Of a stretch of DNA of 44,455 bases, positions 12,380-42,775 are shown one piece after another. The position numbers and the translations under genes were made by a program. The DNA is from Kiritimatiellia bacterium. GTDB lineage: Bacteria > Verrucomicrobiota > Kiritimatiellia > RFP12 > UBA1067. Each line of letters opens with the position of its first letter. Position 1 is the stretch's first letter. The DNA is taken from NCBI GenBank assembly GCA_017508315.1, contig JAFVZE010000350.1, positions 1 to 44,455 of the forward strand, written 5' to 3'. Under the pieces are notes generated by a model. That model saw nothing but the letters and a program-made list of their open reading frames with translations. It was not told where the DNA came from and did no database searches.

Positions 12380-12425
12380 TGGTGCGACTGACTGGGATCG
12401 AACCAGCAACCTTCGGCTTCGGAGG
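12380..12425. repeat. attL: 46-bp exact copy of the 3' part of tRNA-Arg(CCG); displaced tRNA fragment
   Basis: tggtgcgactgactgggatcgaaccagcaaccttcggcttcggagg is identical at 12380-12425 and 42699-42744. Identity ends on both sides (a/t at the 5' edge, gtgtt vs ccaac at the 3' edge). The left copy lacks the 5' half of the tRNA. Confidence 0.92.
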
Positions 12426-12476
12426 GTGTTGGTCGACGATTTCGGGCTTTGTTTTTAGCGGTCATGCTTGCAATGT

Positions 12477-12518
12477 GCGGTCTTTTGTGCGATAATTGGT
12501 GATGATGTTTCTTTCGTT
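12477..12518. repeat. Candidate arm-type recombinase/Xis binding motifs in the int-proximal arm
   Basis: GCGGTCTTTTGTG (12477-12489) and GTTTCTTTCGTT (12507-12518). The same two motifs occur in the same order in the other arm (42612-42659). Confidence 0.4.
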
Positions 12519-12568: not shown

Positions 12569-13672
12569 ATGGCGAGACGGGCGAAAGGCTCCGGAACTCT
12601 ATATCGGCGCAACGGCTGGTATTACGCGCAACTGAAGGTCGGCGGCGAGGTGATGCGCCGGGCGCTGGACACTCGCGACAAGCGCGAAGCGTCGAAACGG
12701 CTGGATATCTTGGCCAAGGGTTTCGATCTGCGCGATGAAGAACGTCTCGCGGCTCTGGCGGTACGGCTTAAGCCGAAATCGGCGCGGCGGACGTTTGAGG
12801 AGGCGTGGGAGGTTTATCAGAAGGCGCCGGAAAACGTCGCGCAGCCGGATCAGGCTCGGCGCAACAACGAGACGATGTGGCGGGGGTTTCTGCGATTCCT
12901 GCATGGCCACGACAAGCCGCGCTCAAGATGTAATTGCGAGGCGGCGTATCCGTCCGCCTATCTGCTCGACGATATCACCGAGAATGTGGCGAGCGATTTC
13001 GTCGGCTGGCTCAAGACGAACCGCTCGCCCGAGACGGCGAACAAATACGTCCGCGTGCTGAAGCGCGTCTGGGCGCTCAATCGCGTCGACGAGAATCCCT
13101 GGAACGGTTTTCGCAAGCTCAAGGTCGACGCCGTCCAGCGGCGGGCGCTTTCGCGTGACGAGGTGGATTTTCTCATCTCCAAGGCCGAGGGTGAAATGCG
13201 CACGCTCTTCACGCTCGGCGCTTACACCGGGATGCGTCTCGGCGACTGTCAGCGGTTCCGGTGGGAGATGGTGTGCCGTGACCGACTGATGGTTCGAACA
13301 TCGAAAACGAAACGCCTGGCGGCGATTCCGATTCATCCGGTGTTGGCGGCGGCGCTCGGTCCGGCGAAGGCCAAGGGCTACCTGATGCCGGAGCTCGCCG
13401 CGTGGCCGGAGTGGAAGATCTCCGAGGCCGTGCAGAAGCATTTCGCCGACTGCGGCTTCGAGAAGCCGGTCAAGCGTGAGGGCTACAAGCGCTCGATGGG
13501 CGAGATCGGTTTTCATTCGCTGCGTTCGACGTTCATCACGCGGCTCGGCGAGGCGGGCGTTCCTCTCGCCGTCGTGCGTGAAATGGTCGGCCATGTCTCG
13601 GAGGAGATGTCGCAGCGTTATTTCCGGGCAAATGATGACATGGCGGCGCGGGCAATCGCGGCGCTCACCTGA
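12569..13672 (+). CDS. int: Tyrosine recombinase (phage integrase family)
   Basis: 367 aa. It has an N-terminal arm-binding-like segment (GTLYRRNGWYYAQLKVGG) and a SAM-like core-binding domain. Catalytic motifs are GAYTGMRLGD (Arg I), FHSLRSTF (His-x-x-Arg), VGHVS and QRYF (Tyr). It lies 143 bp from attL. Confidence 0.93.
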   Translation: MARRAKGSGTLYRRNGWYYAQLKVGGEVMRRALDTRDKREASKRLDILAKGFDLRDEERLAALAVRLKPKSARRTFEEAWEVYQKAPENVAQPDQARRNNETMWRGFLRFLHGHDKPRSRCNCEAAYPSAYLLDDITENVASDFVGWLKTNRSPETANKYVRVLKRVWALNRVDENPWNGFRKLKVDAVQRRALSRDEVDFLISKAEGEMRTLFTLGAYTGMRLGDCQRFRWEMVCRDRLMVRTSKTKRLAAIPIHPVLAAALGPAKAKGYLMPELAAWPEWKISEAVQKHFADCGFEKPVKREGYKRSMGEIGFHSLRSTFITRLGEAGVPLAVVREMVGHVSEEMSQRYFRANDDMAARAIAALT

Positions 13673-13691: not shown

Positions 13692-14042
13692 ATGAAGGAT
13701 ACAATCTTAAATATGACACTTGCCGAGGATGGGATTGTCGTTCTGGCGCTCGTTCTTGGCGGTGTTGTCGGATGGCTGATTGCAATTGTCCGTCGTTGGC
13801 GACTCGATAGGAGGTTCAAGGCAGAGGAGAAGTCAATTGACAGGATAATTGCCCGCGCAAGCATTTCCGACCTTGCGGACATGGCCGATGAGAAGAAGTT
13901 GTCCCTTCAGGCACCGGTACGGTCAATGCTTCGAAAAATACGAAATGAAATCGATGCGGCCTCTATGGAGTGCGAAAGTGAGTCCGACTCCGAATTGTTG
14001 ACGGACTTGTCGTTCGATCTTGAGCGCATCGCTGGAAAGTGA
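13692..14042 (+). CDS. Small single-pass membrane protein (candidate lysogeny-expressed moron/superinfection exclusion)
   Basis: ATG at 13692 is preceded by AAGGAGAAAAA. The product is 116 aa: MKDTILNMTLAEDGIVVLALVLGGVVGWLIAIVRRWRL... with one TM helix. The region is visibly more A/T-rich than its neighbours. The longer track ORF 13476..14042 overlaps int and is not supported. Confidence 0.6.
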   Translation: MKDTILNMTLAEDGIVVLALVLGGVVGWLIAIVRRWRLDRRFKAEEKSIDRIIARASISDLADMADEKKLSLQAPVRSMLRKIRNEIDAASMECESESDSELLTDLSFDLERIAGK

Positions 14043-14088: not shown

Positions 14089-14118
14089 TTGACGGTAGGT
14101 GCTACCATTTGGTAAGAT
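14089..14118 (+). promoter_or_regulatory. Sigma70-like early promoter with operator O1 in its spacer
   Basis: TTGACG (14089-14094), an 18-nt spacer, then TAAGAT (14113-14118). It is preceded by an A/T-rich UP-like stretch (14043-14088) and followed by an RBS GAAAGGA and the RHH1 ATG at 14148. Spacer length and consensus applicability in this phylum are uncertain. Confidence 0.55.
14093..14107. promoter_or_regulatory. Operator O1 (cGGTAG-GTG-CTACCa palindrome)
   Basis: The core GGTAGGTGCTACC (14094-14106) is identical to the cores of O2 and O3. It lies between the -35 and -10 elements. Confidence 0.6.
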
Positions 14119-14147
14119 GTCTGCGTCAGGTCAAGAAAGGATTGAAA

Positions 14148-14384
14148 ATGAAAGCTCCAAAGAAAACGAACCGGCACGGCCGGTACAAGGTCGGAACGGT
14201 CAAGCTGACCGTGACCGTCGATAACGAGGACAAGCTGCGCGTCGAGCGTCGCGCTCAGAATCGTGGCTATAAGGATGTTTCGTCGTTCTTGCGCGAAGCG
14301 ATCCATCAGGCGGTCTGGGACGAACCCCTTCTCCCTGAAGACTACAAGAAACTCGCAGAAATGACAAAAGCGCAGGAGGTCTGA
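14148..14384 (+). CDS. Ribbon-helix-helix (CopG/Arc/MetJ-type) DNA-binding protein 1
   Basis: 78 aa from ATG 14148: ..GTVKLTVTVDNEDKLRVERRAQNRGYKDVSSFLREAIHQAV.. The pattern is a beta-strand, helix A, G/turn, helix B. The upstream extension to 14109 would start inside the promoter. Confidence 0.75.
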   Translation: MKAPKKTNRHGRYKVGTVKLTVTVDNEDKLRVERRAQNRGYKDVSSFLREAIHQAVWDEPLLPEDYKKLAEMTKAQEV

Positions 14385-14388
14385 GACG

Positions 14389-14556
14389 ATGCAACTTACG
14401 ACTGAACTTTCGAACGATACCTGGATCAAACTTGAACGTCGAGCCAAGCGTCTCGGGCTGACCGCTGCGGAGGCGGCGCGGGTGATCGCCGTCAATGGGG
14501 CCGAATTTTTTTTGGCGATGTTGGTAGGTGCTACCAATTCCAGTATCAAGGGCTGA
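14389..14556 (+). CDS. Ribbon-helix-helix DNA-binding protein 2 (55 aa; below the ORF-track cutoff)
   Basis: ATG 14389 lies 10 nt after AGGAGG. Own translation: MQLTTELSNDTWIKLERRAKRLGLTAAEAARVIAVNGAEFFLAMLVGATNSSIKG*. It has an RHH pattern (beta QLTTELS; helices DTWIKLERRAKRLG / LTAAEAARVIAV). Its last codons contain operator O2. Confidence 0.6.
   Translation: MQLTTELSNDTWIKLERRAKRLGLTAAEAARVIAVNGAEFFLAMLVGATNSSIKG
14521..14537. promoter_or_regulatory. Operator O2: perfect palindrome TTGGTAG-GTG-CTACCAA
   Basis: Exact 17-bp inverted repeat, identical to O3. It is preceded by T8-GG-N5, as O3 is. Confidence 0.65.
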
Positions 14557-14596
14557 TGCCCTTGTACGCCTGCCGACGGTCTTTTTTTTGGGGCCG

Positions 14597-14613
14597 TTGG
14601 TAGGTGCTACCAA
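14597..14613. promoter_or_regulatory. Operator O3: perfect palindrome TTGGTAG-GTG-CTACCAA
   Basis: Exact 17-bp inverted repeat, immediately upstream of the RBS GAAGGAGG and the ATG 14628 of RHH3. Confidence 0.65.
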
Positions 14614-14627
14614 ATGAAGGAGGTCTG

Positions 14628-14795
14628 ATGTCTGTGAAATATATCGCGGTTCCGTGCGACGACGAGCTCTACCGGGCGGTCGTTGAGGCTGGCAAGCGCT
14701 CCGGCCTGAAGCTCGGGCCGGAATGCGCCCAGAGACTCCGGAAGGTTTACCGGGTCGGCGTTTTCGCGCCGGTCAAGAAAGGCGGCGCGAAATGA
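14628..14795 (+). CDS. Ribbon-helix-helix-like small DNA-binding protein 3
   Basis: 55 aa from ATG 14628 (RBS GAAGGAGG): MSVKYIAVPCDDELYRAVVEAGKRSGLKLGPECAQRLRKVYRVG.. It has a beta-strand plus two helices. The RHH assignment is weaker than for proteins 1 and 2. Confidence 0.5.
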   Translation: MSVKYIAVPCDDELYRAVVEAGKRSGLKLGPECAQRLRKVYRVGVFAPVKKGGAK

Positions 14796-15088
14796 AACCG
14801 GCGACGGCGAACGCGATCAAGGCGCTGCTCAAGATGGACGCGACGGTGACGACGAACGAGCGTTTGGCTATCGTCGAGGCGATGTCGGCGAAGCCGTCGT
14901 CGGCGGCGGCGCTCGATCTGGCCGGGGAGGTCTCGGTCGCTGATGCGGCGGACTATCTTTCGATGTCGCGCACTACGCTTTGGCGGATGTGTTCGCGCGG
15001 CGACGTCTGCGCGGTCCGGCGCGGGAAGAAATATTACATTGCGGGCGCGGACGTGGCGAGGCTCAAGTCGGCCAAGGAGGTGGCATGA
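14792..15088 (+). CDS. Excisionase/AlpA-like helix-turn-helix DNA-binding protein
   Basis: 98 aa from ATG 14792 (ATGA overlap with the preceding stop). The C-terminal motif VSVADAADYLSMSRTTLWRMCSRGDVCAVRRGKKYYIAGADVARL is typical of the HTH_17/Xis/MerR-like excisionase fold. Confidence 0.7.
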   Translation: MKPATANAIKALLKMDATVTTNERLAIVEAMSAKPSSAAALDLAGEVSVADAADYLSMSRTTLWRMCSRGDVCAVRRGKKYYIAGADVARLKSAKEVA

Positions 15089-17653: not shown

Positions 17654-18139
17654 ATGAAGGATAAAACGATAGCTGAGTTGATTCATGACCGGGTGTTTGC
17701 CGAGGGCGGAACGCTGAACGTCTGGCTCTCTGGCGCGAAGTTCCGGAAGTTGACGACTCGGATCAACGCTCGAACTTGTCATTCAGCGACCGCCGAGGAG
17801 TCGATGGACTGCCTGGTGGAATTCAAGCCGTCGCCGGAGTTGGCGACGATGATCGCTCGGAATGCCGACGAGCTACGGGGCTATCTGTCCGGAATAGTCC
17901 GGAATTGGGCGGCCGAAGTATCGGCTCGCAGATCTCGCCTGGCCGGTTCGGCACGGGTCCTTCCCGGAGGTTTCGAAGCCGTCTCTCAAAGGTCAAAAGG
18001 TCCGGATATTTGCGACTGTCACGGCGGGATGAGGTCGGCGATTTCAGAGCGTGGGCGAAAAATTACCGGCGCGGCGGTAATTGCGGCGGTTTTTTGTGGT
18101 TTTGCAGGTCTCGGACGGCCTTTTGTCGGTGTTCTCTGA
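17654..18139 (+). CDS. Hypothetical protein (the 3' third is doubtful as coding)
   Basis: 161-aa ORF. The first ~95 aa look protein-like with GC-rich third positions. The last ~65 codons have weaker third-position bias and contain a hairpin plus T-run (18061-18095). Confidence 0.4.
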   Translation: MKDKTIAELIHDRVFAEGGTLNVWLSGAKFRKLTTRINARTCHSATAEESMDCLVEFKPSPELATMIARNADELRGYLSGIVRNWAAEVSARRSRLAGSARVLPGGFEAVSQRSKGPDICDCHGGMRSAISERGRKITGAAVIAAVFCGFAGLGRPFVGVL

Positions 18140-18286
18140 AATCGGCGGCGGTGCGCGTGATTCGGCGGCCGTCGGCGGGGTCGAAATGGGTCAACGTTCA
18201 AGTTTTAAGGTTGAAAGACCGGGCGTGGGGAGCGGGTGTTCGCCGCGTCGGCTTTCGTGAAAAAAAAAGAAAGGAAAAAAACGAAA

Positions 18287-19699
18287 ATGGAAAAAATCAA
18301 ACTGAAAACGCTGCGGGTTGCGGAGCTTGAGCACGCACCGTGGAATCCTCGGTCGGAGGCGGAGCTTGATTGGCAGAATCCGCGCATGGTCGAACTCATC
18401 GAGTCTGTCCGTGCGGGCGGCATCGCGCAATCGCTCGCGGTCTGGGAGTGCGACGACGGTCAGAATATCGTCATCGCCGGAAACCGCCGTCTCGAGGCGG
18501 CGCGGGCCGTCGGTCTTGCGTCCGTTCCGGCGCTGGTGTTCTCCGGAATCTCCGAGGCGCGGGCGCAGGAGATCACGCGCACCGAGAACGAAATCCGTCA
18601 AGGCGTGGATCCGCTGCAGGATGCTCTGCTTATCGAGCGGATGCTCTCCAAGGGAGTCGACCAGAAAACGATCGCGGCGCATTTCGGAATGTCGGAGGCG
18701 ATGGTCTGCCGCCGCGCCAAGCTCATCAATCTCGACGACTCCGTTCGCGCCGTCGTCGCGGAGGGCGGAAATATCGCAATCGACGCGCTCGAGCAGATCG
18801 CGCTTTATCCGGCGGACGTCCAGCGTCGGTGTTCGGCGGAGATTCGGCGCTACTCGAACACGTCCGGCGTTGTGCGGTGGCGCGATATCTCCTGGAAGAT
18901 TAAGCAGATGACTCGTTCTCTCGATGATGCGATTTTTAACACGTCCTGCTGTGTCGCGTGTCCGAATCGCACCGGAGCCCAGCCTGACCTCTGGGCGGAG
19001 ATTCCGGAGGACGGGAAGCTCGGCGACTGCATCTGCAGTGAGTGTTTCGAGCGGAAGGTCCGCGAGTTCGATCTCGGTCGCATCCGCGAAATCGTCGGCG
19101 ACGGTGTCGAGCTTGTCGATGCGAATGAGGCGGGGCTTGAGTCCTGGCGCGCGGATCGTCTCGACTGTTTCGCGCTCAAGCGCTCTGCTGACTTTCCGGT
19201 CGCATGGTATTGGATCAACGATTATGAGTCCGACGCGTCCGATCGCTACAACCTGCGCTACGGTCCTACGCTCGAAGACTACCGCGCGTTCGAAGAAGCC
19301 GAAGAAGAACGTCGCGACCGTGAACGTGAAGCCGCCGAAGCTGAATCCGCCGAAGCCAAGGCGAAACGTGCCGAGCGCCGCGCTCTCGACGACGAGGTTG
19401 AAGGCTGCGTGAGTCGCATTCTGTCCGGTCTCGGCGGTGAGGATCACGCCAGTTTCAAGAAGGCGGTCAAAAAGTGCGTCGCCGGTGCCACGCTCAAAGG
19501 TGCCGCCGCGACCATGCTTGCGCAGATCATCAACGACTGGTGGACGTACGACGCCAACCCTAACGAATCGATTGAGTTCCTGGTGGCCGTTCCCGGTTTC
19601 GCCAAGGCGCTGAAGGTCGAAAAAGAAAACCTCGACGCCTACAAGGCCGCGCTCAAAAAGCTCGAAGCCTGGGATAAGGCAAACAGCTGCAAAGCCTGA
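18287..19699 (+). CDS. ParB/Srx-fold N-terminal domain protein with a Cys-rich middle region and an acidic coiled-coil
   Basis: 470 aa from ATG 18287. ParB N-domain motifs: VAELEHAPWNPR, IVIAGNRRLEAARAVG, and an HTH segment KTIAAHFGMSEAMVCRRAKL. Then CCVACPNRTG..CICSECFERK (a zinc-finger-like cluster) and an EEAEEERRDREREAAEAE stretch. Confidence 0.7.
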   Translation: MEKIKLKTLRVAELEHAPWNPRSEAELDWQNPRMVELIESVRAGGIAQSLAVWECDDGQNIVIAGNRRLEAARAVGLASVPALVFSGISEARAQEITRTENEIRQGVDPLQDALLIERMLSKGVDQKTIAAHFGMSEAMVCRRAKLINLDDSVRAVVAEGGNIAIDALEQIALYPADVQRRCSAEIRRYSNTSGVVRWRDISWKIKQMTRSLDDAIFNTSCCVACPNRTGAQPDLWAEIPEDGKLGDCICSECFERKVREFDLGRIREIVGDGVELVDANEAGLESWRADRLDCFALKRSADFPVAWYWINDYESDASDRYNLRYGPTLEDYRAFEEAEEERRDREREAAEAESAEAKAKRAERRALDDEVEGCVSRILSGLGGEDHASFKKAVKKCVAGATLKGAAATMLAQIINDWWTYDANPNESIEFLVAVPGFAKALKVEKENLDAYKAALKKLEAWDKANSCKA

Positions 19700-19782
19700 T
19701 CCGTTCTGGAACACCGCAAGGTTCAAGGCGTGGCGGTCCGGAGAGACGGGCGTTTCGTACAAAAAAATGAAAGGATGACAAA

Positions 19783-20019
19783 ATGAAATTACTGTTGATT
19801 GCCTTTTTGGCCTGCGCGTCTGTCGGCTGTGACAATCCAGACTGCTGGGAGTTTTGCGCCGTGGTTCCGAAAGGGGCGACGGTGTCTGAACTGATGGATT
19901 GCGAGAATATCTTGAGGTCGAACGGGTATAGACGAGTCGATGTCAATGTGTCTTGTAGTGGTAGTTATTTTATTCATGCGACACGAACCGATTCAAAAAG
20001 CAAGGAGGGCGCCAGGTGA
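19783..20019 (+). CDS. Small secreted protein or lipoprotein
   Basis: 78 aa: MKLLLIAFLACASVGCDNPDCW... It has a signal peptide with Cys residues in lipobox-like positions. The DNA is visibly A/T-richer. Its stop overlaps the GTG start of the methylase gene. Confidence 0.5.
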   Translation: MKLLLIAFLACASVGCDNPDCWEFCAVVPKGATVSELMDCENILRSNGYRRVDVNVSCSGSYFIHATRTDSKSKEGAR

Positions 20020-21395
20020 AAAACGAAACTCTGAAACTGTCCTTGTTCGCGGAGAATCCGGACAATCCGCAGACGGTGACCGACGAAGCCTTCGCCGATC
20101 TCGTCGCGTCCGTCCGCCGCGATCCTGAAACGCTCGCGGCCAACAAGATCGCGTATTGCACCGACTACGTTTCGCCCATCTCCGGCGAATCGTTCGCGGG
20201 ACGACGCATAGTCATGGCCGGAAACAAGCGCCTGCGCGCGCTCAAGAAGATCTATGGCGAGGACGGCGAGGTTCCGGCCGACTGGTTTTTCGACCTGACT
20301 CCGCTCGGAGTCGAGGCTCGCCGTCGCTGGCTGGTGCGCTCCAACGTCCAGACTGGCGAGTGGGAGGCTGAACTGCTGATGAAGCTGTATTCGAAGGATG
20401 AGCTGTCGTCTCTCATGTCTCCGGATGCGCTCGACGAGATATTCACCGCTTTCGATGCCGCTCCGGCGGCGAAAGGCAAAAAGGACGCCGACGCCGTTCC
20501 CGCCGTAGACGCCGCAGAACCTCCTTCGTCTCGTAGGGGGGGGGTGTACGCGCTCGGTCCGCATCGGCTCATGTGCGGCGACTCCACGTCTCTCGAGGAC
20601 GTTGCGCGTCTCATGGGCGGCGTCAAGGCCGACCTGCTCGTCACCGATCCGCCGTACAACGTCGACTATCAGGGGGCAGCCGGTAAGATCATGAACGACT
20701 CCATGGGCGATTCCGATTTCATGAAGTTCCTCGTCGACGTCTATTCCGCCGCCGATTCCGCGCTCCGCTGCGGAGCGCCCTTCTACATCTGGCACGCGGA
20801 TTCGGAAGGTTTCAACTTTCGCGGCGCGGCGCGTGCCGTCGGCTGGCAGATCCGTCAATGTCTCGTCTGGGTCAAGGATTCGCTGGTCCTCGGTCGCCAG
20901 GATTACCAATGGCGGCATGAGCCGTGTCTCTACGGCTGGAAGGACGGCGCGGCGCATACGTGGCGAGGCGGACGTAAGCAGACGACCGTCGTCGAGCTTA
21001 TCCCGGAATCCGTCGAAACCGACACCGCCGCCGGAGTCGTCCGCTTCCATGTCGCGGGTCGGTCGTTCCAGATTCCGCTCGACGCCGTCTGCGAAGTGGT
21101 CGACTTCACCGCCATCCCGATGCCGAAGCCGACCGTCTCCAAGCTCCATCCGACGATGAAGCCGGTCGCGCTCTTCGCCTATCAGATCCGCAATTCGTCC
21201 GAGCCCGGCGCGGTGGTTCTCGATCTCTTCGGCGGCTCCGGCACGAGCGTGATCGCCTGCGAGGAGACCGGCCGCAATTGCCGCGCGATGGAGCTCGATC
21301 CGAAATTCTGCGACGTGATTCGCCGCCGGTGGGCCGAATTCGTCCACGGCGACGGCTGCGACTGGCTGTCGCTCACTCCGGAGGTGGCTTTATGA
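20016..21395 (+). CDS. ParB-like domain fused to a beta-class N6-adenine/N4-cytosine DNA methyltransferase (N6_N4_Mtase type)
   Basis: 459 aa. N-terminal ParB-like motifs (ENPDNPQTV..; IVMAGNKRLRAL). MTase motif IV DLLVTDPPYN precedes motif I VLDLFGGSGTSVIACEETGR, which is the beta-class order. HPTMKPVAL is also present. Confidence 0.88.
   Translation: MKNETLKLSLFAENPDNPQTVTDEAFADLVASVRRDPETLAANKIAYCTDYVSPISGESFAGRRIVMAGNKRLRALKKIYGEDGEVPADWFFDLTPLGVEARRRWLVRSNVQTGEWEAELLMKLYSKDELSSLMSPDALDEIFTAFDAAPAAKGKKDADAVPAVDAAEPPSSRRGGVYALGPHRLMCGDSTSLEDVARLMGGVKADLLVTDPPYNVDYQGAAGKIMNDSMGDSDFMKFLVDVYSAADSALRCGAPFYIWHADSEGFNFRGAARAVGWQIRQCLVWVKDSLVLGRQDYQWRHEPCLYGWKDGAAHTWRGGRKQTTVVELIPESVETDTAAGVVRFHVAGRSFQIPLDAVCEVVDFTAIPMPKPTVSKLHPTMKPVALFAYQIRNSSEPGAVVLDLFGGSGTSVIACEETGRNCRAMELDPKFCDVIRRRWAEFVHGDGCDWLSLTPEVAL
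20536..20543. repeat. G8 homopolymer inside the ParB-methyltransferase CDS (inter-domain linker)
   Basis: tcgtaGGGGGGGGtgtac encodes ..SRRGGVY.. between the ParB-like and MTase domains. Confidence 0.9.
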
Positions 21396-21598
21396 TCTGG
21401 TTGAAGTTGTTGTTTGCGCATCTGTTTTTTCGGCGGTGCGGAAATTGTGCAAATGCAAAGGTTCATCCGTGGGCGACGTTCACTTGCGGATGTGTTTGCG
21501 ACGATCCGGATATGTTTGGGCAGATGCCTTTTCACCATGTGTGTGACGGGCCGTGTAAAAAAATTCGCATTCTTCAAACAAAACGAAAGGAAAAATAA
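21392..21598 (+). CDS. Small Cys-rich protein
   Basis: 68 aa from ATG 21392 (ATGA overlap; RBS GGAGGTGG): MIWLKLLFAHLFFRRCGNCANAKVHPWATFTCGCVCDDPDMFGQMPFHHVCDGPCKK.. It has 8 Cys and a hydrophobic N-terminus. The DNA is A/T-richer. Confidence 0.45.
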   Translation: MIWLKLLFAHLFFRRCGNCANAKVHPWATFTCGCVCDDPDMFGQMPFHHVCDGPCKKIRILQTKRKEK

Positions 21599-21601
21599 AA
21601 A

Positions 21602-22011
21602 ATGAAGCAAACCTCTGAATTCGTCTCTCTCGGCCATCCGGACAAGATCGCCGATTTCGTCAGCTCCTATCTGCTCGACCGCTACCTCGAGCGCGATCCG
21701 TTCACCCGCTATGCGGTCGAATGCCAGATCAAGGACTCGATGGTCACGCTCGGCGGCGAGGTCACATCGTCCTACGCGATGCCGCTCTCCGAGGTACGTG
21801 TCCACGTGGCGGACGCCGTGCGGTCGGCCAGGTTGTCACGGCGACCGGCTTTGCGAACGGCTACGCGAAGGAGTTCACCGACAAGGAAGGCAAAAAGCGC
21901 ACCATGTATGGCGTCCGGTTTCGGCTCACGGATCTGGCGAACGGGTGCGATGGGGCGTCGACTGGCCCGTCTGCTGCTGCCGACGATGGCGACGATGACA
22001 TTCCGTATTGA
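21602..22011 (+). pseudogene. Frame-broken chimeric gene: MetK (SAM synthetase) N-terminal-domain homolog continuing in the -1 frame into an SSB-like C-terminal segment with a DDDIPY tail
   Basis: Frame A (from 21602): [63 protein letters not shown]. This aligns by eye with E. coli MetK residues ~6-85 ([58 protein letters not shown]). The homology continues only after a -1 shift near 21826-21830 ([10 protein letters not shown] ~ IGYVHSDMGF). The sequence then reads [19 protein letters not shown]...[15 protein letters not shown], with its stop at 22009-22011. Confidence 0.6.
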
Positions 22012-22020
22012 TCTGAATTT

Positions 22021-22039
22021 GGCCGGATCGGTTCCGGCC
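22021..22039 (+). terminator. Hairpin directly after the -1-frame stop of the MetK/SSB chimera
   Basis: GGCCGGA-tcggt-TCCGGCC, a 7-bp GC stem with no clear T-run. The frame-A ORF would have to read through it to its stop at 22040-22042. Confidence 0.35.
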
Positions 22040-22060
22040 TGAAACGAGAAAGGATAAAAA

Positions 22061-22645
22061 ATGGAAATCAGCAAGTATGCCGCGTGGATGCGCAAGTGTG
22101 CGGAGGCGGCTCGCACAACGGATCCGAAACTGACGAAGGCGCAGCGTCGGAAGTTCACAAACGAGATTCAGTCCGAGTACCGCGGTCTCGCGGCCCTGCT
22201 CGACCGCGTCGACAACCTTCGGGCCAGCTCGACGCCTGGTGCCGCGTCGACACTTGACAAGCAGGAGCTGATGAACGGCATCTGTGCCGTGTTCGGTGTC
22301 AAAGCGCCGCAGGTCGAGTACACCGATGCCGACCTGCAGCTGATGCTGAAGCGTCGCTTCGCGTCGGAAGGCATGACGTTCGGCTTCGCGCTCGAGGCGA
22401 TGAAGATCGGATGCAAGGTTGCGCGTAAGTCCTGGGCCGGATTCGGTAACGTCTACCTCTGGCTGCTGCCGGAGTCAACGATCAAGCGTGAGTGGGTGAA
22501 GGACAAAATGCTCGCGGAGTGCTTTGTCGCTGACGAGCTCGTTTGTCACGGGGCCATCCGAATGAAAACGGCGAACTGTAAGGTTCTCACGGGCTGGGTT
22601 CCGGACGGGGACGAGCTCTTGGCCGAGGACTGGGTTATCGTCTAA
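22061..22645 (+). CDS. DUF2829-domain protein (Tad2-like candidate anti-Thoeris sponge) with a ~95-aa N-terminal extension
   Basis: 194 aa. The C-terminal ~95 aa, MTFGFALEAMKIGCKVARKSWAGFGNVYLWLL..IRMKTANCKVLTGWVPDGDELLAEDWVIV, matches my recollection of the DUF2829 pattern (FG.AlealK.GkkvaRkgW.g.........MKTadg.i..W..sq.D.LAeDW). Confidence 0.7.
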   Translation: MEISKYAAWMRKCAEAARTTDPKLTKAQRRKFTNEIQSEYRGLAALLDRVDNLRASSTPGAASTLDKQELMNGICAVFGVKAPQVEYTDADLQLMLKRRFASEGMTFGFALEAMKIGCKVARKSWAGFGNVYLWLLPESTIKREWVKDKMLAECFVADELVCHGAIRMKTANCKVLTGWVPDGDELLAEDWVIV

Positions 22646-24924
22646 TGGCCGAGCAGCTCGATCAAATCAAAGCCCTGGCTGCGCAGGGCGTAAACCTCCG
22701 AGACGCCGAGGCCGTTATCGGTCGTGCGTTCACGCCAGAGGAGGTTCAGTCCTTCCGCAAGATTGCGACGCTGCGTCGGCTGCGTCGGTCTGCCGAGGCC
22801 CAGGAGGCGGCGCGGAAGCGCCGTCTCGCGCTCGAGGCGGAGCAGAAGGCCAATCTCGAGGCCCAGCTTGCCGGTACCGATCCGGACTGGGCGTCGAAGA
22901 TTCGCGGCCCGAAGTCGGCCCTTGACCGCCAGCACGAGCACCGTGCTCGCGGTCGGGAGCTTCGCTCGATCCCGCCACCGCGTCGGCGTCGGGTGCGGGA
23001 GCGCTACCGCTTCGACCTGCTGGGGTTCGGTCTCGCCTACGGCGTCGGCAAGTACGAGGGCATGAAGCCGCTCCTGAAGCGCCCACCTTCCCTTCGGATG
23101 GTGCGCTTCGTCCGTGCGCTTCAAGAGAAGATCCTGCACGGCGGTCTGAAGCACGTCCGTTGGCCGCGTGGGAAGGGAAAGTCGACCTGGGTGAAGATCG
23201 CGATTCTCTGGGCGGCTCTCTACGGTCACAAGTTCTTCATGGTCGTGGTCGAAAAGACCAAGGGCATGGCGCAGGTCGTGGTTGAGGAGATATGGAAGCG
23301 GATCTATCTGTCGCCGCGTATCTCGGTGGACTTTCCGGAGTTCGCCGTGCCGATGCGGGACGTCGAATTGTCGCCGCAGCGGATGCGGTCGCAGACCTAC
23401 CACGGTAAGCCGACCTACATGAAGCAGGATATCGTGAAGTTCTGCTACTACAAGCTGCCGACTGTGGACGGGTTCCCGCAAACCGGCGCGATCATCGCGT
23501 TCCGCGGTGCCGACCAGGCGCTCCGCGGAATCAATATCGAGTCGGCTCGTCCGGACTTCTTCTTCATCGACGATCCCTGCTCCGATACCGACGCCAAGAA
23601 TCCGGCGACCTGCGACAAGATCGAGGACAACATCAACGGTGCCGTCCTCGGCTCCGGTGAAATCAACGAGCGCATCTCGGCGGTCATGGCGTCGACGGCA
23701 ATCGAACCGGACGACGTCAGCGAGCGGTTCGCGGATCCGGCAAAGCATCCGGAGTGGCAAACCGAAACCGAGCGGCTCGTCACGACGTTCGGGCCGCAGG
23801 AGATGGTCTCGAAGTACCTGAAGCTCGCAGAAATCGACGAGGCCCAGGCGCACGAGTGGTACGCGGCGAATCAGGCGGCGATTGAGGTCGGCGTCGAAAT
23901 GATGGATGATCGGGACTTCGTTGAAGGAGTCGAATGCTCGGCCTACGAGCACGCTCTCTATCTGCTGCACACCATGAAGCCGACGCGGTTCTATTCCGAG
24001 TACCAAATGGCGCCGTCTCGGTCGCAGGGCATCTACAAGATTTCGCCGAAAATGATCCGCGAGCGCCTGAACGGGCATCCGATGGGCGAAGTTCCGCACG
24101 AGTGCGACCAGGGCGTTCTGGCGTTCTGCGACGTGAATGCGGTCGCCGGTCTGCGGTGGGAGATCTGTGCGTTCGGCAAGGGCCGCGTAACGGCGACGCT
24201 TGCCTACGGGCAGTATCCGGCGAACGGCGAGCGTCTCTATCCGAAGGGAATCCCGAAGTCGGCCATTCCCGACTACCTGGCTCCGGCGATCCGCACCGTC
24301 GCCGAGGTCATCATGGGCGTGGAGCTGAAGGACGAGCTCGGCGAGCCGGTAAAGGTTCGCGGCATCTGCTTCGATGGTGGCTGGATGACCGAGTGCGTCG
24401 CCAGCACCGTGGCGGACCTCTATGCCGGTGGACTGAATTGCTCCTGGTCGAAAGGTTACAACTCGAAGGAGTATTCTCGCTACCATCACGAGGCCGCTGC
24501 GTCCGGCAAGATCAAAGGTCTCAAGGCCGCGGAGGAGTGCCATACCTGGGCCACCGCAAACGGCACGTATCTCGCATTCAATTCGGACTATTGGAAGGAG
24601 GTTTCGCAAACCTCGTATCTCGCGGATCCGCTCTCGCGTTCGTCATCGTCGTTCTTCGGAACGGATAAGCTCACGCATCATCAGTTCGCCCAGGAAATCT
24701 GCAACGAGGAGCTCAAGGCGAAGGACAAATCCACAAAGTACGGCCACGTCTATACCTGGGCGAAGGATCCGTCAAGGCCGAATCACTTCGGCGACGTCCA
24801 TGCTGGTGTGCTCGTCTATGGCGCGATCCGTGGAAACTTCGACCGCATCGCCGCGGTCATCAAAGCCGAGTCGCTCGTCAAGGTTGCAAAGCATCGAAAA
24901 GTTCGCTATGTCTACAAGGGGTAA
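22645..24924 (+). CDS. Terminase large subunit with a ~130-170-aa N-terminal extension (possible fused small-terminase/DNA-binding module)
   Basis: 759 aa. Walker A VRWPRGKGKSTW sits unusually far in, at residues ~172-183. Walker B-like PDFFFIDDP is present, and the C-terminal half is nuclease-sized. The gene lies immediately upstream of the gpW-like and portal genes. The N-terminus is HTH-like (GVNLRDAEAVIGRAFT), followed by a coiled coil and a basic tract. Confidence 0.8.
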   Translation: MAEQLDQIKALAAQGVNLRDAEAVIGRAFTPEEVQSFRKIATLRRLRRSAEAQEAARKRRLALEAEQKANLEAQLAGTDPDWASKIRGPKSALDRQHEHRARGRELRSIPPPRRRRVRERYRFDLLGFGLAYGVGKYEGMKPLLKRPPSLRMVRFVRALQEKILHGGLKHVRWPRGKGKSTWVKIAILWAALYGHKFFMVVVEKTKGMAQVVVEEIWKRIYLSPRISVDFPEFAVPMRDVELSPQRMRSQTYHGKPTYMKQDIVKFCYYKLPTVDGFPQTGAIIAFRGADQALRGINIESARPDFFFIDDPCSDTDAKNPATCDKIEDNINGAVLGSGEINERISAVMASTAIEPDDVSERFADPAKHPEWQTETERLVTTFGPQEMVSKYLKLAEIDEAQAHEWYAANQAAIEVGVEMMDDRDFVEGVECSAYEHALYLLHTMKPTRFYSEYQMAPSRSQGIYKISPKMIRERLNGHPMGEVPHECDQGVLAFCDVNAVAGLRWEICAFGKGRVTATLAYGQYPANGERLYPKGIPKSAIPDYLAPAIRTVAEVIMGVELKDELGEPVKVRGICFDGGWMTECVASTVADLYAGGLNCSWSKGYNSKEYSRYHHEAAASGKIKGLKAAEECHTWATANGTYLAFNSDYWKEVSQTSYLADPLSRSSSSFFGTDKLTHHQFAQEICNEELKAKDKSTKYGHVYTWAKDPSRPNHFGDVHAGVLVYGAIRGNFDRIAAVIKAESLVKVAKHRKVRYVYKG

Positions 24925-25219
24925 GTCGAACGGGCGTTCTGTCCGTATGTCCATCGAAATCGAAGGTATGGGTGTGAAGTTCGATGTTCTGCCGGGGCCG
25001 CAGCGGCTCCCTGCCATGCATCTCACCGAGTGTCGATGCTGCCACTCGCGGGTCTATTTCAGGGCGCGTTCGTCGACGCCGTCGACGGATCCGGCGTTCA
25101 AGGTCGAGTATCTCTACTGTCCGGTCTGCGGGGCCACGGCCACCCAGGTTCGCGAGGTCGAGGTGCTGCCGAAGTCGGCCCTGAAACGGCGAAAGGTCGA
25201 ATGCCGCTATCGGGCGTGA
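24908..25219 (+). CDS. Small zinc-ribbon protein
   Basis: 103 aa from ATG 24908, overlapping the terminase 3' end by 17 nt. It contains ..LTECRCCHSRVYF...YLYCPVCGATA.., i.e. two CxxC-type pairs. Confidence 0.45.
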   Translation: MSTRGKSNGRSVRMSIEIEGMGVKFDVLPGPQRLPAMHLTECRCCHSRVYFRARSSTPSTDPAFKVEYLYCPVCGATATQVREVEVLPKSALKRRKVECRYRA

Positions 25220-25234
25220 TTTGATACTTCAAAT

Positions 25235-25267
25235 GGGCCGCGGCAGTCGTTCCGCGGCTCTCTTTTT
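25235..25267 (+). terminator. Rho-independent terminator at the end of the early/packaging transcription unit
   Basis: ggGCCGCGG-cagtcgtt-CCGCGGCtc, a 7-9 bp GC stem, followed by TCTTTTT. Confidence 0.7.
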
Positions 25268-25283
25268 GTAGTTTCTACAAAAA
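25263..25283. promoter_or_regulatory. Palindrome TTTTTGTAG-TTT-CTACAAAAA upstream of the structural operon (operator variant)
   Basis: Perfect 9+9 inverted repeat with a 3-nt spacer. It shares the GTAG-N3-CTAC core and geometry with O1-O3 (TTGGTAG-GTG-CTACCAA). TTGACG follows 18 nt downstream at 25301-25306. Confidence 0.5.
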
Positions 25284-25373
25284 ATATCAGGGTTTGGCCC
25301 TTGACGGACTTGCGGCGTTATAACACCTGGTGCTATTCTGTTGCCGTCGAGAGCGAATGGAGACCGACCTGAA

Positions 25374-31267: not shown

Positions 31268-31798
31268 ATGGCAGTCAAACGTTTTGCGGTCAAGTCCGCG
31301 ACATTCAAATTCGGCGACAAGACCTTCGATATGGAGACCGGTCCGGTCATGAAGGCCGAAACGCGCGAGGCGGTCGAGGTGACCGCGCTTTCCGACGCGG
31401 TAAAAAGGTTCATCCCCGGCGCTCTCAAGGAAGTCGACGAGTTCACGGTTTCGCTCTACATGACCGGTGCGGCGGACATCACCGTCGACTCCGCGCCCGC
31501 CGCGCTCAGGATCGAAGTCGTCATCGAGAACGGTGAAAGCGAGGATGTCTCGTTCGCTCTCGAATATCCGACGGCCATCGTCACCAAGGTCGCGCCGTCG
31601 CAGATTCAGGCGAGCTCCGATCGTAAGGCGCTCTACGATGTCACGATCCGTCCCGACGGCTCCGATGCCGCCGCGCAGACCGACGGCTCCGATGCCGCCG
31701 CGCAGACCGACGGCTCCGATGCCGCCGCGCAGACCGACGGCTCCGATGCCGCCGCGCAGACCGACGGCTCCGATGCCGCCGCGCAGACCGACGGCTGA
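31268..31798 (+). CDS. Major tail (tube) protein with a C-terminal (DGSDAAAQT)x5 repeat appendage
   Basis: 176 aa with RBS AAAGGAGGAG. It sits directly upstream of the G/GT chaperone pair and the tape measure gene, the conserved siphovirus order. Confidence 0.65.
   Translation: MAVKRFAVKSATFKFGDKTFDMETGPVMKAETREAVEVTALSDAVKRFIPGALKEVDEFTVSLYMTGAADITVDSAPAALRIEVVIENGESEDVSFALEYPTAIVTKVAPSQIQASSDRKALYDVTIRPDGSDAAAQTDGSDAAAQTDGSDAAAQTDGSDAAAQTDGSDAAAQTDG
31655..31795 (+). repeat. Perfect tandem repeat, 27 bp x 5.2 copies
   Basis: gacggctccgatgccgccgcgcagacc is repeated without a single mismatch at 31655, 31682, 31709, 31736 and 31763. A partial gacggc follows before the stop. Confidence 0.97.
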
Positions 31799-31820
31799 AA
31801 TCTCCGGCGAGGTGTGAACG

Positions 31821-32102
31821 ATGTCGTTTGCGGATGTATTCGAGCTTAAGCTCGGCGAGACTCTGGTCCGGGGGCGTCGGCTGACTATCAGGGAGCTGCG
31901 GGAGAACTATTCCGCGCTCCTGGAGGATCGGCTCGACGTTCCGAGGGCGCTCGAACTTGTCCGCGAGCACGTCACGCTCGCGGACGGCGGCGCGTTCGAT
32001 CCCGAGGACGTCTCGATGGATCAGATGCGTCGGCTCATCGCCGAGATGACGCTTCCGGAGGAAGGACGCGGTATCTCGGATTTTATCGGGCTGCTCTGCT
32101 GA
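31821..32102 (+). CDS. Tail assembly chaperone (gpG-like)
   Basis: 93-aa acidic ORF between the tail tube and tape measure genes. Confidence 0.6.
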   Translation: MSFADVFELKLGETLVRGRRLTIRELRENYSALLEDRLDVPRALELVREHVTLADGGAFDPEDVSMDQMRRLIAEMTLPEEGRGISDFIGLLC

Positions 32103-40039: not shown

Positions 40040-42396
40040 TTTCGCTGTTCGCGCTTGCGTTCGCCGCTATAACGCTCTCCTTCGACAAGTCGACGATCAA
40101 GTATCCCAACGCCGGGCGCGACTCGTTCGCGGCGGATTGGATCGCTGGCAACGGCGGCGACGTGAAGCGTATCGGTGCCGAGTCGCGGCTGGCCATGCTC
40201 GGCACTATCGACGCGACGATCAGCCGTCTGCTGTTTCCGACGCTCGGCAACTACGGTGGCGCGCGTAACGCGAATTCGTCCCGTCTGAGCTCCGCCGACT
40301 GGAACGAGCAGGTTTTGACGGAAAGTGAATATTTTTGGACGGAGCCGATGATGATCGACAGCGACGGCTGGCCTTATCGGCTGATGAATTTATCTCTTAA
40401 CGTCGACGGGGAGGTCACGCATTACGGGTATCGGTTCAACGTGGCCGAACGGCGGGATTTCTCGAAAGCGCAGCGGCGCATCGAGGAGATTAACGCGCTT
40501 ATCAACCGTTATGTTCTCGGGGAGGCGTACTACGATGATGAATATGATACGATCTTCGGAAACGGGCTGTGCGGCGAAGGCTTCTGGCTCGTTCCGGCCA
40601 ACGTCAAGGGAGCTGGTCTTGAGATTCCACTTTGCCAATGGACCGAGAAGTTCCGCGATTTCAATCCGTTCGCGGGCGATTATGCGCTTGCGATCGGCGA
40701 GTTATCCAAGCGCGGGCTGGGCGGTTCCTGGCGCGGCGCGATGATGGGGGCGCTTCACAGTTTCTATTATGACTTTTGGCATCAGGATTTCTGGAACTTC
40801 GCTCATGCGCTGAACGGTTCTCCGAACTGGGACGGTGTCGATCCACTCGATGTCATGAGCTTCGCGCTCGGGCCCGTTTATGCCGCAGGCGAGACCAACG
40901 AATCGATTCGGGCTGAGAAGCAGGTCAGCGTCGCCGATCTCCTGGCGGCTCATTCTGACGGGATTGATTTCACCTCGTTCACGAACCGTCCGACGAACCG
41001 GATCTGGAAAGAACGCATCGCCTTCGCGAACGCTTATCTCGCGGCCTGCCGGACCAAGGCGATTCCTCTGCCGCGAACGATGCCGGTCGTTTTTCACGCG
41101 GGAAGTAATACGCTCAGTTCCGTCGGGACGGTCTGGAAGAGTCCCTACCATCATTTCCAGCGCGAGGAATACAGCGGCAATCTGAGCGCGAAACTCCGGA
41201 TGACCATGGATCTCGGCGAGGGCGAATCGTTCGGCATCAACAGCGACGACGGGATGATTCCGCTCGACCTCGGTTCGTTCAAAACCGAATCGTTCACCGC
41301 GACGAACGACTACACGTGCTCAACGAACTGGGCGGAAAACCTGACGTGCGCTTGGACTGAGGAAGACGCGAAGATCACCGTCGGCGGAGACGTCTTGCAG
41401 CCGGTGCGGTTCTCCCAGTTCGGCGTCACGGCTGATGAGATTTATTCGCGGCACGGGTCGGAATGGACGACGCTCTTCCTGAGCTACAACGTATCTGCGG
41501 ACAATCCGTACAAGTCGGCGCTCGTCATGCGCGACGGAGATTATCAGGTCGGGCTGAGCGTCGGTCCGGAGGTCTCGACGAACTGGACCGGTTATATCGA
41601 TCTCGTCTACAACGGCAAGGTTCGCGGCGTCGAGTGTCTCGGTGTCGGCGAGGCGGTCGATGGGTATTACTTCGCCGGCGACAAAACGCAGGAGGAGCTT
41701 GCCGAATATTCTCTGGACAAGACGATCCTGCCGCCGCAGCTGAATCCTATCTCAGAAAGTCTCATCGGCGGCATCACGTTAAATTATGTCGACGTGCTGG
41801 GAATCTCGACGAACCGCGAAGATGTCGGCGGCGTGGCGGGCGGCGGGTTCTGGGTGGCGGGCGAGTGCTTTGATCGGGGCGATCCCGGCCAGCCGGACGT
41901 GTTCAAGCCGAAGGATACCTGGATTTATCTGCGCACGGCGAAGCTCGAACAGAAACTGGCGTCCAAGTCGGAGATGGACGCTTATATGGTGGCGATGTAT
42001 GACGAGGCGGTCGGACAGCTTCCGGTAGCATATGGACTTACTGCCGGTCTCGGCGACGTGTACCCGCCGAACAAGGCCGCGTCGCAGATCTCCGAGGGTG
42101 TTTTGCAGCGTGTTGCGCAGAAGATCATCTCCGGTCAGGGCGGCGTGAAGATGCAGCCGCAGGCGCCGTCAATCCTGACGCCGAATCTGCGCGTCAGGGC
42201 GACGAGCGAAGACAAGCTCGAGGTCGCTGACGGCGAGGATCAGGTCGTCGCGTCGTTTTCGTTCCGCATCGCGCTCACGAAATCGGCGAGCGGCGACGAC
42301 GCTCCGCTTCGCACGTCATGCGCTGTGGGGTTCTGGCGGCAGCCGCACGCGATTGTGGACTGGAACTTTCCGGCGATGGGATTCTCCGGCGAGTGA
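40036..42396 (+). CDS. ORFan, 786 aa, with a hydrophobic N-terminus
   Basis: ATG 40036 (ATGA overlap): MISLFALAFAAITLSF... It is Trp/Tyr/Asp/Gly-rich and looks beta-rich. I recognise no catalytic motif. It is the last gene before the operon terminator. The track start at 39850 is in-frame upstream read-through. Confidence 0.55.
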   Translation: MISLFALAFAAITLSFDKSTIKYPNAGRDSFAADWIAGNGGDVKRIGAESRLAMLGTIDATISRLLFPTLGNYGGARNANSSRLSSADWNEQVLTESEYFWTEPMMIDSDGWPYRLMNLSLNVDGEVTHYGYRFNVAERRDFSKAQRRIEEINALINRYVLGEAYYDDEYDTIFGNGLCGEGFWLVPANVKGAGLEIPLCQWTEKFRDFNPFAGDYALAIGELSKRGLGGSWRGAMMGALHSFYYDFWHQDFWNFAHALNGSPNWDGVDPLDVMSFALGPVYAAGETNESIRAEKQVSVADLLAAHSDGIDFTSFTNRPTNRIWKERIAFANAYLAACRTKAIPLPRTMPVVFHAGSNTLSSVGTVWKSPYHHFQREEYSGNLSAKLRMTMDLGEGESFGINSDDGMIPLDLGSFKTESFTATNDYTCSTNWAENLTCAWTEEDAKITVGGDVLQPVRFSQFGVTADEIYSRHGSEWTTLFLSYNVSADNPYKSALVMRDGDYQVGLSVGPEVSTNWTGYIDLVYNGKVRGVECLGVGEAVDGYYFAGDKTQEELAEYSLDKTILPPQLNPISESLIGGITLNYVDVLGISTNREDVGGVAGGGFWVAGECFDRGDPGQPDVFKPKDTWIYLRTAKLEQKLASKSEMDAYMVAMYDEAVGQLPVAYGLTAGLGDVYPPNKAASQISEGVLQRVAQKIISGQGGVKMQPQAPSILTPNLRVRATSEDKLEVADGEDQVVASFSFRIALTKSASGDDAPLRTSCAVGFWRQPHAIVDWNFPAMGFSGE

Positions 42397-42506
42397 TTTC
42401 CGGGCCGTGGCGGGGTCGCGTGGGCGGCGCGGCAGGTTCTTTCCCGCTGCGGTCAGTTCGGAATTTTGGCCGCTCCGGTTGACGGCGGTGTCGTTCCGAG
42501 CTCCAA

Positions 42507-42544
42507 GCGGCCGGTGGGTTTGAGCACCGGCCGCGCCTTTTTTT
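42507..42544 (+). terminator. Strong rho-independent terminator of the late operon
   Basis: GCGGCCGGTG-ggtttgag-CACCGGCCGC, a perfect 10-bp stem, followed by GCC-TTTTTTT. Confidence 0.85.
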
Positions 42545-42611
42545 CCCGCGCTCGTGGTTTTTTCGCCGCGAGCGCCGTTTCCCGCCGTCCGGACCGCCTG
42601 AAACATAACGG

Positions 42612-42659
42612 GCGGTATTTTGTGCGGTATTTTGTGTGGTGTTTTTGGTTTCTTTCGTT
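42612..42659. repeat. Candidate arm-type recombinase binding repeats next to attR
   Basis: GCGGTATTTTGT occurs twice in tandem (42612-42623, 42624-42635), followed by a degenerate third copy GTGGTGTTTTTG (42636-42647) and then GTTTCTTTCGTT (42648-42659). Both motif types recur at 12477-12518. Confidence 0.45.
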
Positions 42660-42670
42660 CCGCCTAAATA

Positions 42671-42698
42671 AAAAAAGCCCCTTATTTCTGGGGCTTTT
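42671..42698 (-). terminator. Bidirectional hairpin terminator abutting the tRNA 3' end
   Basis: AAAAAAGCCCC-ttatttct-GGGGCTTTTT. On the minus strand the hairpin is followed by a T6 run directly downstream of the tRNA CCA end. It lies on phage-derived DNA. Confidence 0.75.
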
Positions 42699-42744
42699 TG
42701 GTGCGACTGACTGGGATCGAACCAGCAACCTTCGGCTTCGGAGG
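42699..42744. repeat. attR: 46-bp repeat forming the 3' part (anticodon loop to CCA) of the intact tRNA-Arg
   Basis: Identical to 12380-12425. Confidence 0.92.
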
Positions 42745-42775
42745 CCAACGCTCTATCCAATTGAGCTACAGTCGC
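42699..42775 (-). tRNA. tRNA-Arg (anticodon CCG), 77 nt with encoded CCA
   Basis: Reverse complement: GCGACTG-TA-GCTC-AATTGGATA-GAGC-G-TTGGC-CTCCGAA-GCCGA-AGGTT-GCTGG-TTCGATC-CCAGT-CAGTCGC-A-CCA. All four stems pair and the anticodon loop CU-CCG-AA gives Arg. Confidence 0.92.

Follow-up and report, generated by a model that had tools for sequence, protein, structure and literature searches.

Repeated operator-like sites and two small ribbon-helix-helix-type genes form a putative immunity cassette in a prophage family of gut Verrucomicrobia-type bacteria

In the immI region of phage P22, Arc is encoded by the first gene of the operon that it represses, and Mnt, a protein of about 80 amino acids (aa), has a tail at its C-terminus for oligomerisation and recognises a 17-bp operator. 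CopG (RepA) of plasmid pMV158, the 45-aa prototype of the ribbon-helix-helix (RHH) family RHH_1, belongs to a plasmid copy-control operon. Immunity of the satellite phage P4 depends on premature termination, brought about when a small RNA (CI) base-pairs with the transcript. Arc and Mnt are mentioned as RHH repressors in PMC2629481, and natural protein roadblocks are reviewed in PMC10310618. The Cluster A mycobacteriophages, such as L5 and Bxb1, combine an operator at Pleft with elongation-blocking "stoperators", and heteroimmune phages of this cluster show co-variation (PMC6550527). In termination by RNA polymerase I, Reb1 or Nsi1 acts with an upstream T-rich element (PMC12366685). Here we describe a locus in a 44,455-nt stretch of DNA from a Kiritimatiellia bacterium (assembly GCA_017508315.1, contig JAFVZE010000350.1, positions 1 to 44,455, called the window below) that recalls parts of each of these systems. 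It lies in a prophage, where one extended -10 promoter appears to drive two small RHH-type genes, g3 and g4, and where a short inverted repeat recurs in the promoter (O1), at the end of g4 (O2) and just before the following gene, g5 (O3). The region is probably a regulatory cassette, with a role in immunity, of a temperate phage family from gut Verrucomicrobia-type bacteria. Judging from sequence comparison, we give a probability of about one half to a reading in which g3 would bind the sites, O1 would shut the promoter, and O2 and O3 would stop read-through into the lytic genes in the manner of stoperators.

The sites themselves are exact (Table 1). The 17-mer TTGGTAGGTGCTACCAA occurs unchanged at both O2 and O3, and its 13-bp core, GGTAGGTGCTACC, fills part of the promoter spacer at O1, which lacks the outer bases of the 17-mer (ACGGTAG...ACCAT). 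When up to three mismatches are allowed, the window holds 5 matches to the 17-mer against 0.03 expected, a count reached in 0 of 100 shuffles. The core pattern GGTAG-N3-CTACC is found at three places in the 44-kb window, with one further chance match at 22445 that carries one mismatch. A first-pass annotation of this DNA, made from the letters alone, had placed all three copies, and the TTGACG-18-TAAGAT promoter around the O1 core, where pattern searches and a reading of the sequence also find them. It called the repeat a perfect palindrome; this holds for the 7-bp arms, but the GTG centre is not self-complementary, which makes the element a 7-3-7 inverted repeat. A TG at 14110-14111 gives the promoter an extended -10, and a consensus scan calls the site promoter-like. 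The three copies are supported as real operator-like elements. A further palindrome at 25263-25283, proposed in the same annotation as a variant of the operator, turned out to be a different sequence, TTTTTGTAGTTTCTACAAAAA, which has only GTAG-N3-CTAC in common with it; with 2 core mismatches and a different sequence context, it was rejected as a fourth operator. It is a perfect 9-3-9 palindrome, preceded by a terminator-like GC hairpin and T-run and followed by TTGACG (25238-25310 in all), and separates the terminase-side genes from the gpW-like and portal genes.

Related loci were traced with the 17-mer and through homologues of g3, giving 14 besides near-identical copies of the window phage (L006, L009, L021, L023, L024, L026-L030, L036, L037, L039 and L041). 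The exact 17-mer is present in 10 viral contigs, two of which are relatives (L006 and L009) and eight of which are unrelated chance matches; genome contigs searched with the primase alone gave no match. At the cassette, the 14 related phages have only g3 and g4 in common, which are adjacent in all of them, with identities to the window of 58-76% for g3 and 48-62% for g4 in ten measured loci. The core is invariant in all 14, both in the promoter spacer and at the 3' end of g4, and the distance from O1 to O2 is 424-467 bp, or 726 bp in L009, while O2 and O3 are 57-79 bp apart. A third copy of the O3 type is found, as in the window, in L021, L023, L029, L030 and L041, where it is 69-79 bp beyond O2. 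The promoter skeleton aTTGAC-core-ATTTGG-TAnnAT is kept in all relatives compared, usually with TGn before the -10, and an A/T-rich region lies upstream of it. In a DNA alignment of 12 loci with a mean identity of 65%, the only invariant runs of at least 6 nt are CGGTAGGTGCTACC at O1, the T-run TTTTTTTG, and TGGTAGGTGCTACCA at O2.

The T-run is tied to the downstream sites by position. A run of T6-8 ends 9 nt (once 8) before the core at 21 of 21 downstream sites from 16 loci, always on the promoter-proximal side whatever the orientation of the centre, while O1 sites have variable A/T tracts only. Non-coding O3 copies keep the run, although 3-6 positions of its 7-nt spacer do not match those at O2 of that genome, which argues that the T-run is selected together with the downstream sites. 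Neither O2 nor O3 qualifies as a promoter, there being no -10 after them, a ribosome-binding site close by and no promoter-like hexamers, or as an intrinsic terminator, as the T-run precedes the hairpin and a terminator scan finds none there.

The position of O2 within a coding sequence allows constraint on the DNA to be told from constraint on the protein. In the window O2 encodes ...LVGATK at the end of g4 and its T-run encodes Phe-Phe. Relatives with a flipped centre triplet (GGTAGCACCTACC) have the tail LVAPTK instead, and two cluster representatives read the O2 DNA in another frame, giving GRCYQ. In L039, the centre is GTG at O1 and CAC at O2 of the one phage, which argues for symmetric recognition at the level of DNA rather than for an RNA motif. 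On this comparison, the DNA is the conserved object, and at the 3' end of g4 the site dictates the protein tail. The number of sites is polymorphic, since a natural variant of the window phage, L018, lacks exactly 76 bp between two 32-nt repeats (L018:1440-1530 compared with window 14506-14613). There, g4 ends in ...LVGATK* at the only palindrome, which immediately precedes the ribosome-binding site of g5. Contigs from DNA runs have the two-copy form only. The hairpin listed in Table 1 is within the missing 76 bp and is not conserved in relatives. The non-coding O3 region, 14582-14616, can still be translated as FFLGPLVGATK-stop when read in frame +1 with respect to g4, and is probably a former end of g4 that predates the duplication from which O2 arose.

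A hint of an immunity function comes from a close relative, L042. Its integrase (83% identity), g5 (80%) and primase (81%) match those of the window, and g6 and g9 are also common to both. At the position of the cassette (L042:1490-2010) stand two small, unrelated genes, one encoding 76 and the other 42 aa. The flanks of the promoter are homologous (TTGAC-...-TTTTGGTAAAAT-ACGCGCCGTTG), and the spacer holds another 13-mer, GGATGAAACCACC, whose reverse complement, GGTGGTTTnAnCC, overlaps the stop codon of the second gene and is repeated 58 bp downstream; 4 matches are counted, with 0.06 expected. Different regulator genes are accompanied by sites that vary with them at the three equivalent positions, as is typical of heteroimmune phages. 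The difference between L042 and the window looks like heteroimmune cassette exchange, in which the architecture is alike and the specificity different.

Three consecutive open reading frames on the + strand follow the promoter, as the first-pass annotation had said, and they are also gene calls in independent public assemblies. They had been taken for a unit of three RHH proteins, and this must be narrowed to two genes. The first, g3, matches RHH_1 of Pfam over residues 20-56, its 22.7 bits exceeding the cut-off of 20.5; RHH_1 is matched by 4 of the 25 members of its family, and there is a weak in-register match to the RHH domain of NikR. In the 25 sequences, K19, T21 and T23 of the ribbon are invariant, as are the alternating K-L-T-V-T-V strand pattern, residues R9, H10, Y13 and G16 of the basic N-terminal arm, and the AVWDEPLLPEDY tail. 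By these marks g3 is a true RHH protein and a candidate for the repressor that binds the operators.

Judging by a structure model and by family matches, g4 is probably RHH-type. The window protein has no Pfam match, but among 18 family members there are matches to NikA-like (3), FitA-like_RHH (2), RHH_1 (1) and RelB (1). The AlphaFold 2 model, with a predicted local distance difference test score (pLDDT) of 82, has an extended segment at 1-8, helices at 9-21 and 26-36, and an extra helix at 38-54 from the operator-encoded tail. Its top Foldseek matches are RHH proteins (DinJ, FitA, ParD and an RHH protein of a Gordonia phage), at non-significant values of E ≥ 2, and hhalign gives a probability of 47% for g4 against g3. 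The family is tiny, with 14 representatives in an exhaustive search; word-indexed protein searches returned only 3-4 close matches for g4 and g5. The predicted ribbon positions of g4 vary and include a mostly conserved Glu, making it a less likely reader of an invariant site, and it may instead be a co-repressor or modulator. For the third protein, g5, an RHH fold is at most a possibility: no Pfam match is found in 5 members, TraY is matched only weakly (E 0.18-0.25), the AlphaFold 2 model has a pLDDT of 54 and two helices, and hhalign against g3 gives 0.4%. In no relative does a g5 homologue adjoin the cassette. With other genes in between, the homologues in L042 and L044 lie 0.8-2 kb away from the last site, which places g5 in the early operon rather than in the cassette.

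Taken together, these features suggest how a lysogen might be maintained. Dimers of g3 would bind the repeat symmetrically, through the invariant Lys-Thr-Thr ribbon and the basic arm. Occupancy of O1 would block RNA polymerase, so that the cassette represses itself; lacking the outer bases of the 17-mer, O1 may be a weaker site. The full sites at O2 and O3 would halt polymerases that have passed g3 and g4 before they reach g5, xis, and the replication and late genes, and the U-run in the stalled complex would favour release of the transcript. In the lysogen, a single same-strand operon would in this way keep its repressor genes on and its lytic genes off. A lysis-lysogeny switch, as first proposed for this region, is plausible, and is strengthened by the conserved architecture and the heteroimmune-like cassette swap. 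It is a more doubtful step to regard T-run and operator as a repressor-dependent terminator, in which a DNA-bound RHH protein would replace the hairpin of an intrinsic terminator and the polymerase would stall on a U-rich hybrid. To our knowledge, there is no natural bacterial example of termination with this geometry of T-tract and bound protein.

Several points weigh against the stoperator-like reading. Release aided by the T-run is its weakest step: a polymerase is expected to stall about 13-18 nt ahead of a bound protein, which falls at the start of the run and not at its end, an imperfect fit to release of the intrinsic-terminator kind. The L042 cassette also keeps its site positions without a T8 run, so that the run is not essential to the architecture. 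We know of no demonstration that RHH proteins are strong roadblocks. The reader of the sites could be either g3 or g4, and O2 and O3 could serve looping instead. A repressor could be hidden among the window proteins that lack a functional assignment. Finally, an additional HTH_3 gene is encoded on the other strand in two relatives, adjoining the cassette in L023 and about 550 bp off in L030, so some members of the family may use a conventional repressor.

The last two points lead to the alternative that survives best, though we consider it rather unlikely. It is possible that g3 is only an early regulator like Cro or Arc, lowering the early promoter after infection, and that lysogeny is kept by another protein or RNA of phage or host origin. 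As the first gene of the early operon, g3 does occupy the position of Cro or Arc; the HTH_3 genes of L023 and L030 lie near the cassette, and several window proteins, for example those at 17654-18139 and 24800-25219, have no family match at all. However, neither the window nor most relatives have a DNA-binding gene near the cassette. The genes upstream of it in relatives are usually divergent and encode heterogeneous, unrelated membrane, lipoprotein or secreted proteins, and for this reason they were rejected as analogues of cI; the "cI position" is, on the genes found there, filled by moron-like genes and not by repressors. In the prophage itself, HTH_3, HTH_31 and Peptidase_S24 match no gene in Pfam or PHROGs, and NCBIfam adds nothing, which agrees with the first-pass remark that no S24-peptidase or helix-turn-helix (HTH) cI-like repressor is visible in the element. 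A repressor at the right end of the prophage was also considered, and 42396-42699 has no plausible open reading frame. The locus is not a lambda-type CI/Cro switch, with an HTH repressor (often S24) divergent from an HTH Cro gene, as all genes are on one strand. This single orientation, also pointed out in the first-pass annotation, is real in the window but peculiar to this phage, given the divergent upstream genes of most relatives. Turning down of the promoter alone, moreover, leaves unexplained why a site at the 3' border is fixed throughout the relatives and also in the unrelated L042 cassette.

A second alternative, which we hold to be unlikely, makes O2 and O3 auxiliary operators that help to fill O1 by looping of the DNA or by cooperative oligomers, with no block to elongation. 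Auxiliary operators are familiar from lac (O2 and O3) and lambda (OL-OR), and looping proteins are able to combine looping and elongation-blocking roles (PMC5477534). The three identical sites at the spacings given above would suit such an arrangement, and the conserved tail of g3 could oligomerise, but the distances are not helically phased, and looping does not account for a site placed so strictly where gene 2 ends or for a one-sided T-run that is always promoter-proximal.

That the downstream repeats act as RNA, with hairpins that govern the stability of the transcript or mask the ribosome-binding site of the following gene, is very improbable: the RNA of 14493-14636 does fold at -65.3 kcal/mol (z = -6.0) and its U-runs could pair with the purine-rich ribosome-binding site of g5, but O1 precedes the transcription start, the triplet in the loop may be either GUG or CAC, the next gene begins anywhere from 3 to about 100 nt away, and a comparison of five relatives, which ruled out a conserved RNA structure, found nothing beyond the palindromes and no covariation. 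In the predicted fold, the U-runs pair with the region of the g5 ribosome-binding site and a pseudo right-arm, CCTGCCGAC, pairs with the left arm of O3; the fold is common to L021 only.

Table 1. Coordinates of the cassette and neighbouring prophage features in the window
Feature	Position	Strand	Remarks
attL	12380-12425		46-bp direct repeat identical to 42699-42744
Tyrosine integrase	12569-13672	+	Phage_integrase 1.2e-15; phrog_1 2e-37
g2	13692-14042	+	116 aa, N-terminal transmembrane segment
Cassette promoter	14089-14118	+	TTGACG (14089-14094), 18-nt spacer, TAAGAT (14113-14118)
O1	14094-14106		13-bp core, inside promoter spacer
g3	14148-14384	+	78 aa; basic N-terminal arm, predicted ribbon-helix-helix domain (residues 20-56), invariant tail
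g4	14389-14556	+	55 aa, RHH-type; C-terminal helix FFLAMLVGAT encoded by T-run and O2
T8 run	14506-14513	+	7 nt upstream of O2 17-mer, 9 nt from core
O2	14521-14537		Exact 17-bp 7-3-7 inverted repeat within g4 3' end
Hairpin CAAGGGC-TGAT-GCCCTTG	14547-14564	+	Spans g4 stop codon (14554-14556), between O2 and O3
T8 run	14582-14589	+	Non-coding; 7 nt upstream of O3 17-mer
O3	14597-14613		Exact 17-bp inverted repeat, 3 nt before g5 ribosome-binding site
g5	14628-14795	+	55 aa; first gene after cassette border, outside conserved cassette
g6	14792-15088	+	HTH_17 excisionase/AlpA-like; start of early operon running to 652-aa replication protein
attR	42699-42744		3' end of tRNA-Arg CCG (tRNA at 42699-42775)

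The prophage as a whole is 30.3 kb long (12380-42744) and is inserted in tRNA-Arg(CCG), its limits given by the 46-bp direct repeat; third-position GC content places all of its genes on the + strand. The order is integrase, g2, g3-g4-g5, the HTH_17 excisionase-like gene, three tiny genes and the 652-aa replication protein, then a ParB-like gene, a ParB-methyltransferase, an S-adenosylmethionine (S-AdoMet)-synthetase fragment and a Tad2-like gene, and beyond these terminase, a gpW-like gene, a lambda-type portal, and capsid, tail and lysis genes. A sigma-70-like promoter with TG (TTGCAA-17-GATAAT, 12468-12496) separates attL from the integrase gene, and read-through from it would reach the cassette from upstream of O1. 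A homologue of g2 in L021 (L021:5371-5829; 30% identity, E 7e-8) is encoded on the other strand and points away from the cassette promoter. The accessory block at 18236-22645 encodes a ParB-like protein, a lipoprotein-like 78-aa protein (19783-20019), a ParB-N6/N4 DNA methyltransferase, the 146-aa N-domain fragment of S-AdoMet synthetase and the Tad2-like (anti-Thoeris) protein. Further on, about 6 copies of a 27-bp tandem repeat (31626-31823) encode DGSDAAAQT repeats at the C-terminus of a 176-aa protein (31268-31798).

The phage of the window is present in 18 metagenome contigs and in 20 gut-metagenome runs, and a related prophage was found in an uncultured Verrucomicrobia metagenome-assembled genome (MAG). 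A search for RNA-seq runs that contain the region came back empty. One 104-kb contig of a Verrucomicrobia MAG (CAMZEN010000003.1; L021 and L022) contains a related early region in two copies, separated by about 32 kb, whose gene content is identical over the stretches compared. Among the isolated phages of INPHARED, none is related to the window phage.

If the stoperator-like reading is correct, the repressor and all lytic genes would share one co-directional operon with a single promoter and no divergent gene of the cI type, and RHH proteins would replace the usual HTH pair of cI and Cro. The result would be an immunity module of minimal size, about 0.5 kb, in a barely studied phage-host group, that of gut and rumen Verrucomicrobia and the Planctomycetes-Verrucomicrobia-Chlamydiae (PVC) bacteria. 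A fixed border site inside the coding sequence of the second gene, together with its T-run, would offer a directly testable case of control by elongation block, as well as a clear example of a DNA site that dictates a protein tail. The window and L042 cassettes would form a natural pair for tests of immunity specificity, and they may yield compact orthogonal repressor/operator parts.

Among described systems, the locus can be compared first with L5 (PMC6550527). In both, a 13-bp site in the early promoter is found again inside the transcription unit at a place not associated with a promoter, repressor and lytic genes are on the same strand, and related phages are heteroimmune (here, by the look of the L042 cassette) with co-varying sites. 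L5, however, has an HTH repressor and 20-30 asymmetric sites in one orientation across its genome (PMC6550527), whereas the proteins here are RHH-type and the sites are symmetric, number two or three (three in the 44-kb window) and have a centre that can flip. The downstream sites are further set apart from those of L5 by being confined to the cassette border, one of them within a coding sequence, and each with a fixed T-run upstream. The immI region of P22 is similar in its small RHH proteins of a tailed temperate phage and its short symmetric operator that overlaps a promoter, with binding predicted for the window. P22 nevertheless keeps an HTH c2 repressor and has no downstream operator copies, while the window lacks a divergent mnt-like gene, and the Arc and antirepressor families match no prophage protein in Pfam or PHROGs. 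Like CopG, g3 belongs to RHH_1, is encoded first in its operon, is presumed to regulate itself, and has a 13-bp symmetric element that overlaps the promoter; CopG differs in having no N-terminal arm, C-terminal tail or downstream sites. The immunity determinant of P4 also shares an operon with the genes that it silences, and the prophage promoter is partly active with control after initiation, as is proposed for the window, but P4 acts by a small RNA, and the evidence here points to DNA-binding proteins. With Reb1 and Nsi1 the locus has in common a T-rich tract at a fixed short distance upstream of a protein site, a likeness that is geometric only, as that system belongs to eukaryotes and has another polymerase (PMC12366685). 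What would distinguish this cassette from RHH autoregulators and from control of the L5 type is the combination of a border operator in coding sequence, a fixed T-run, and cassette exchange between close relatives.

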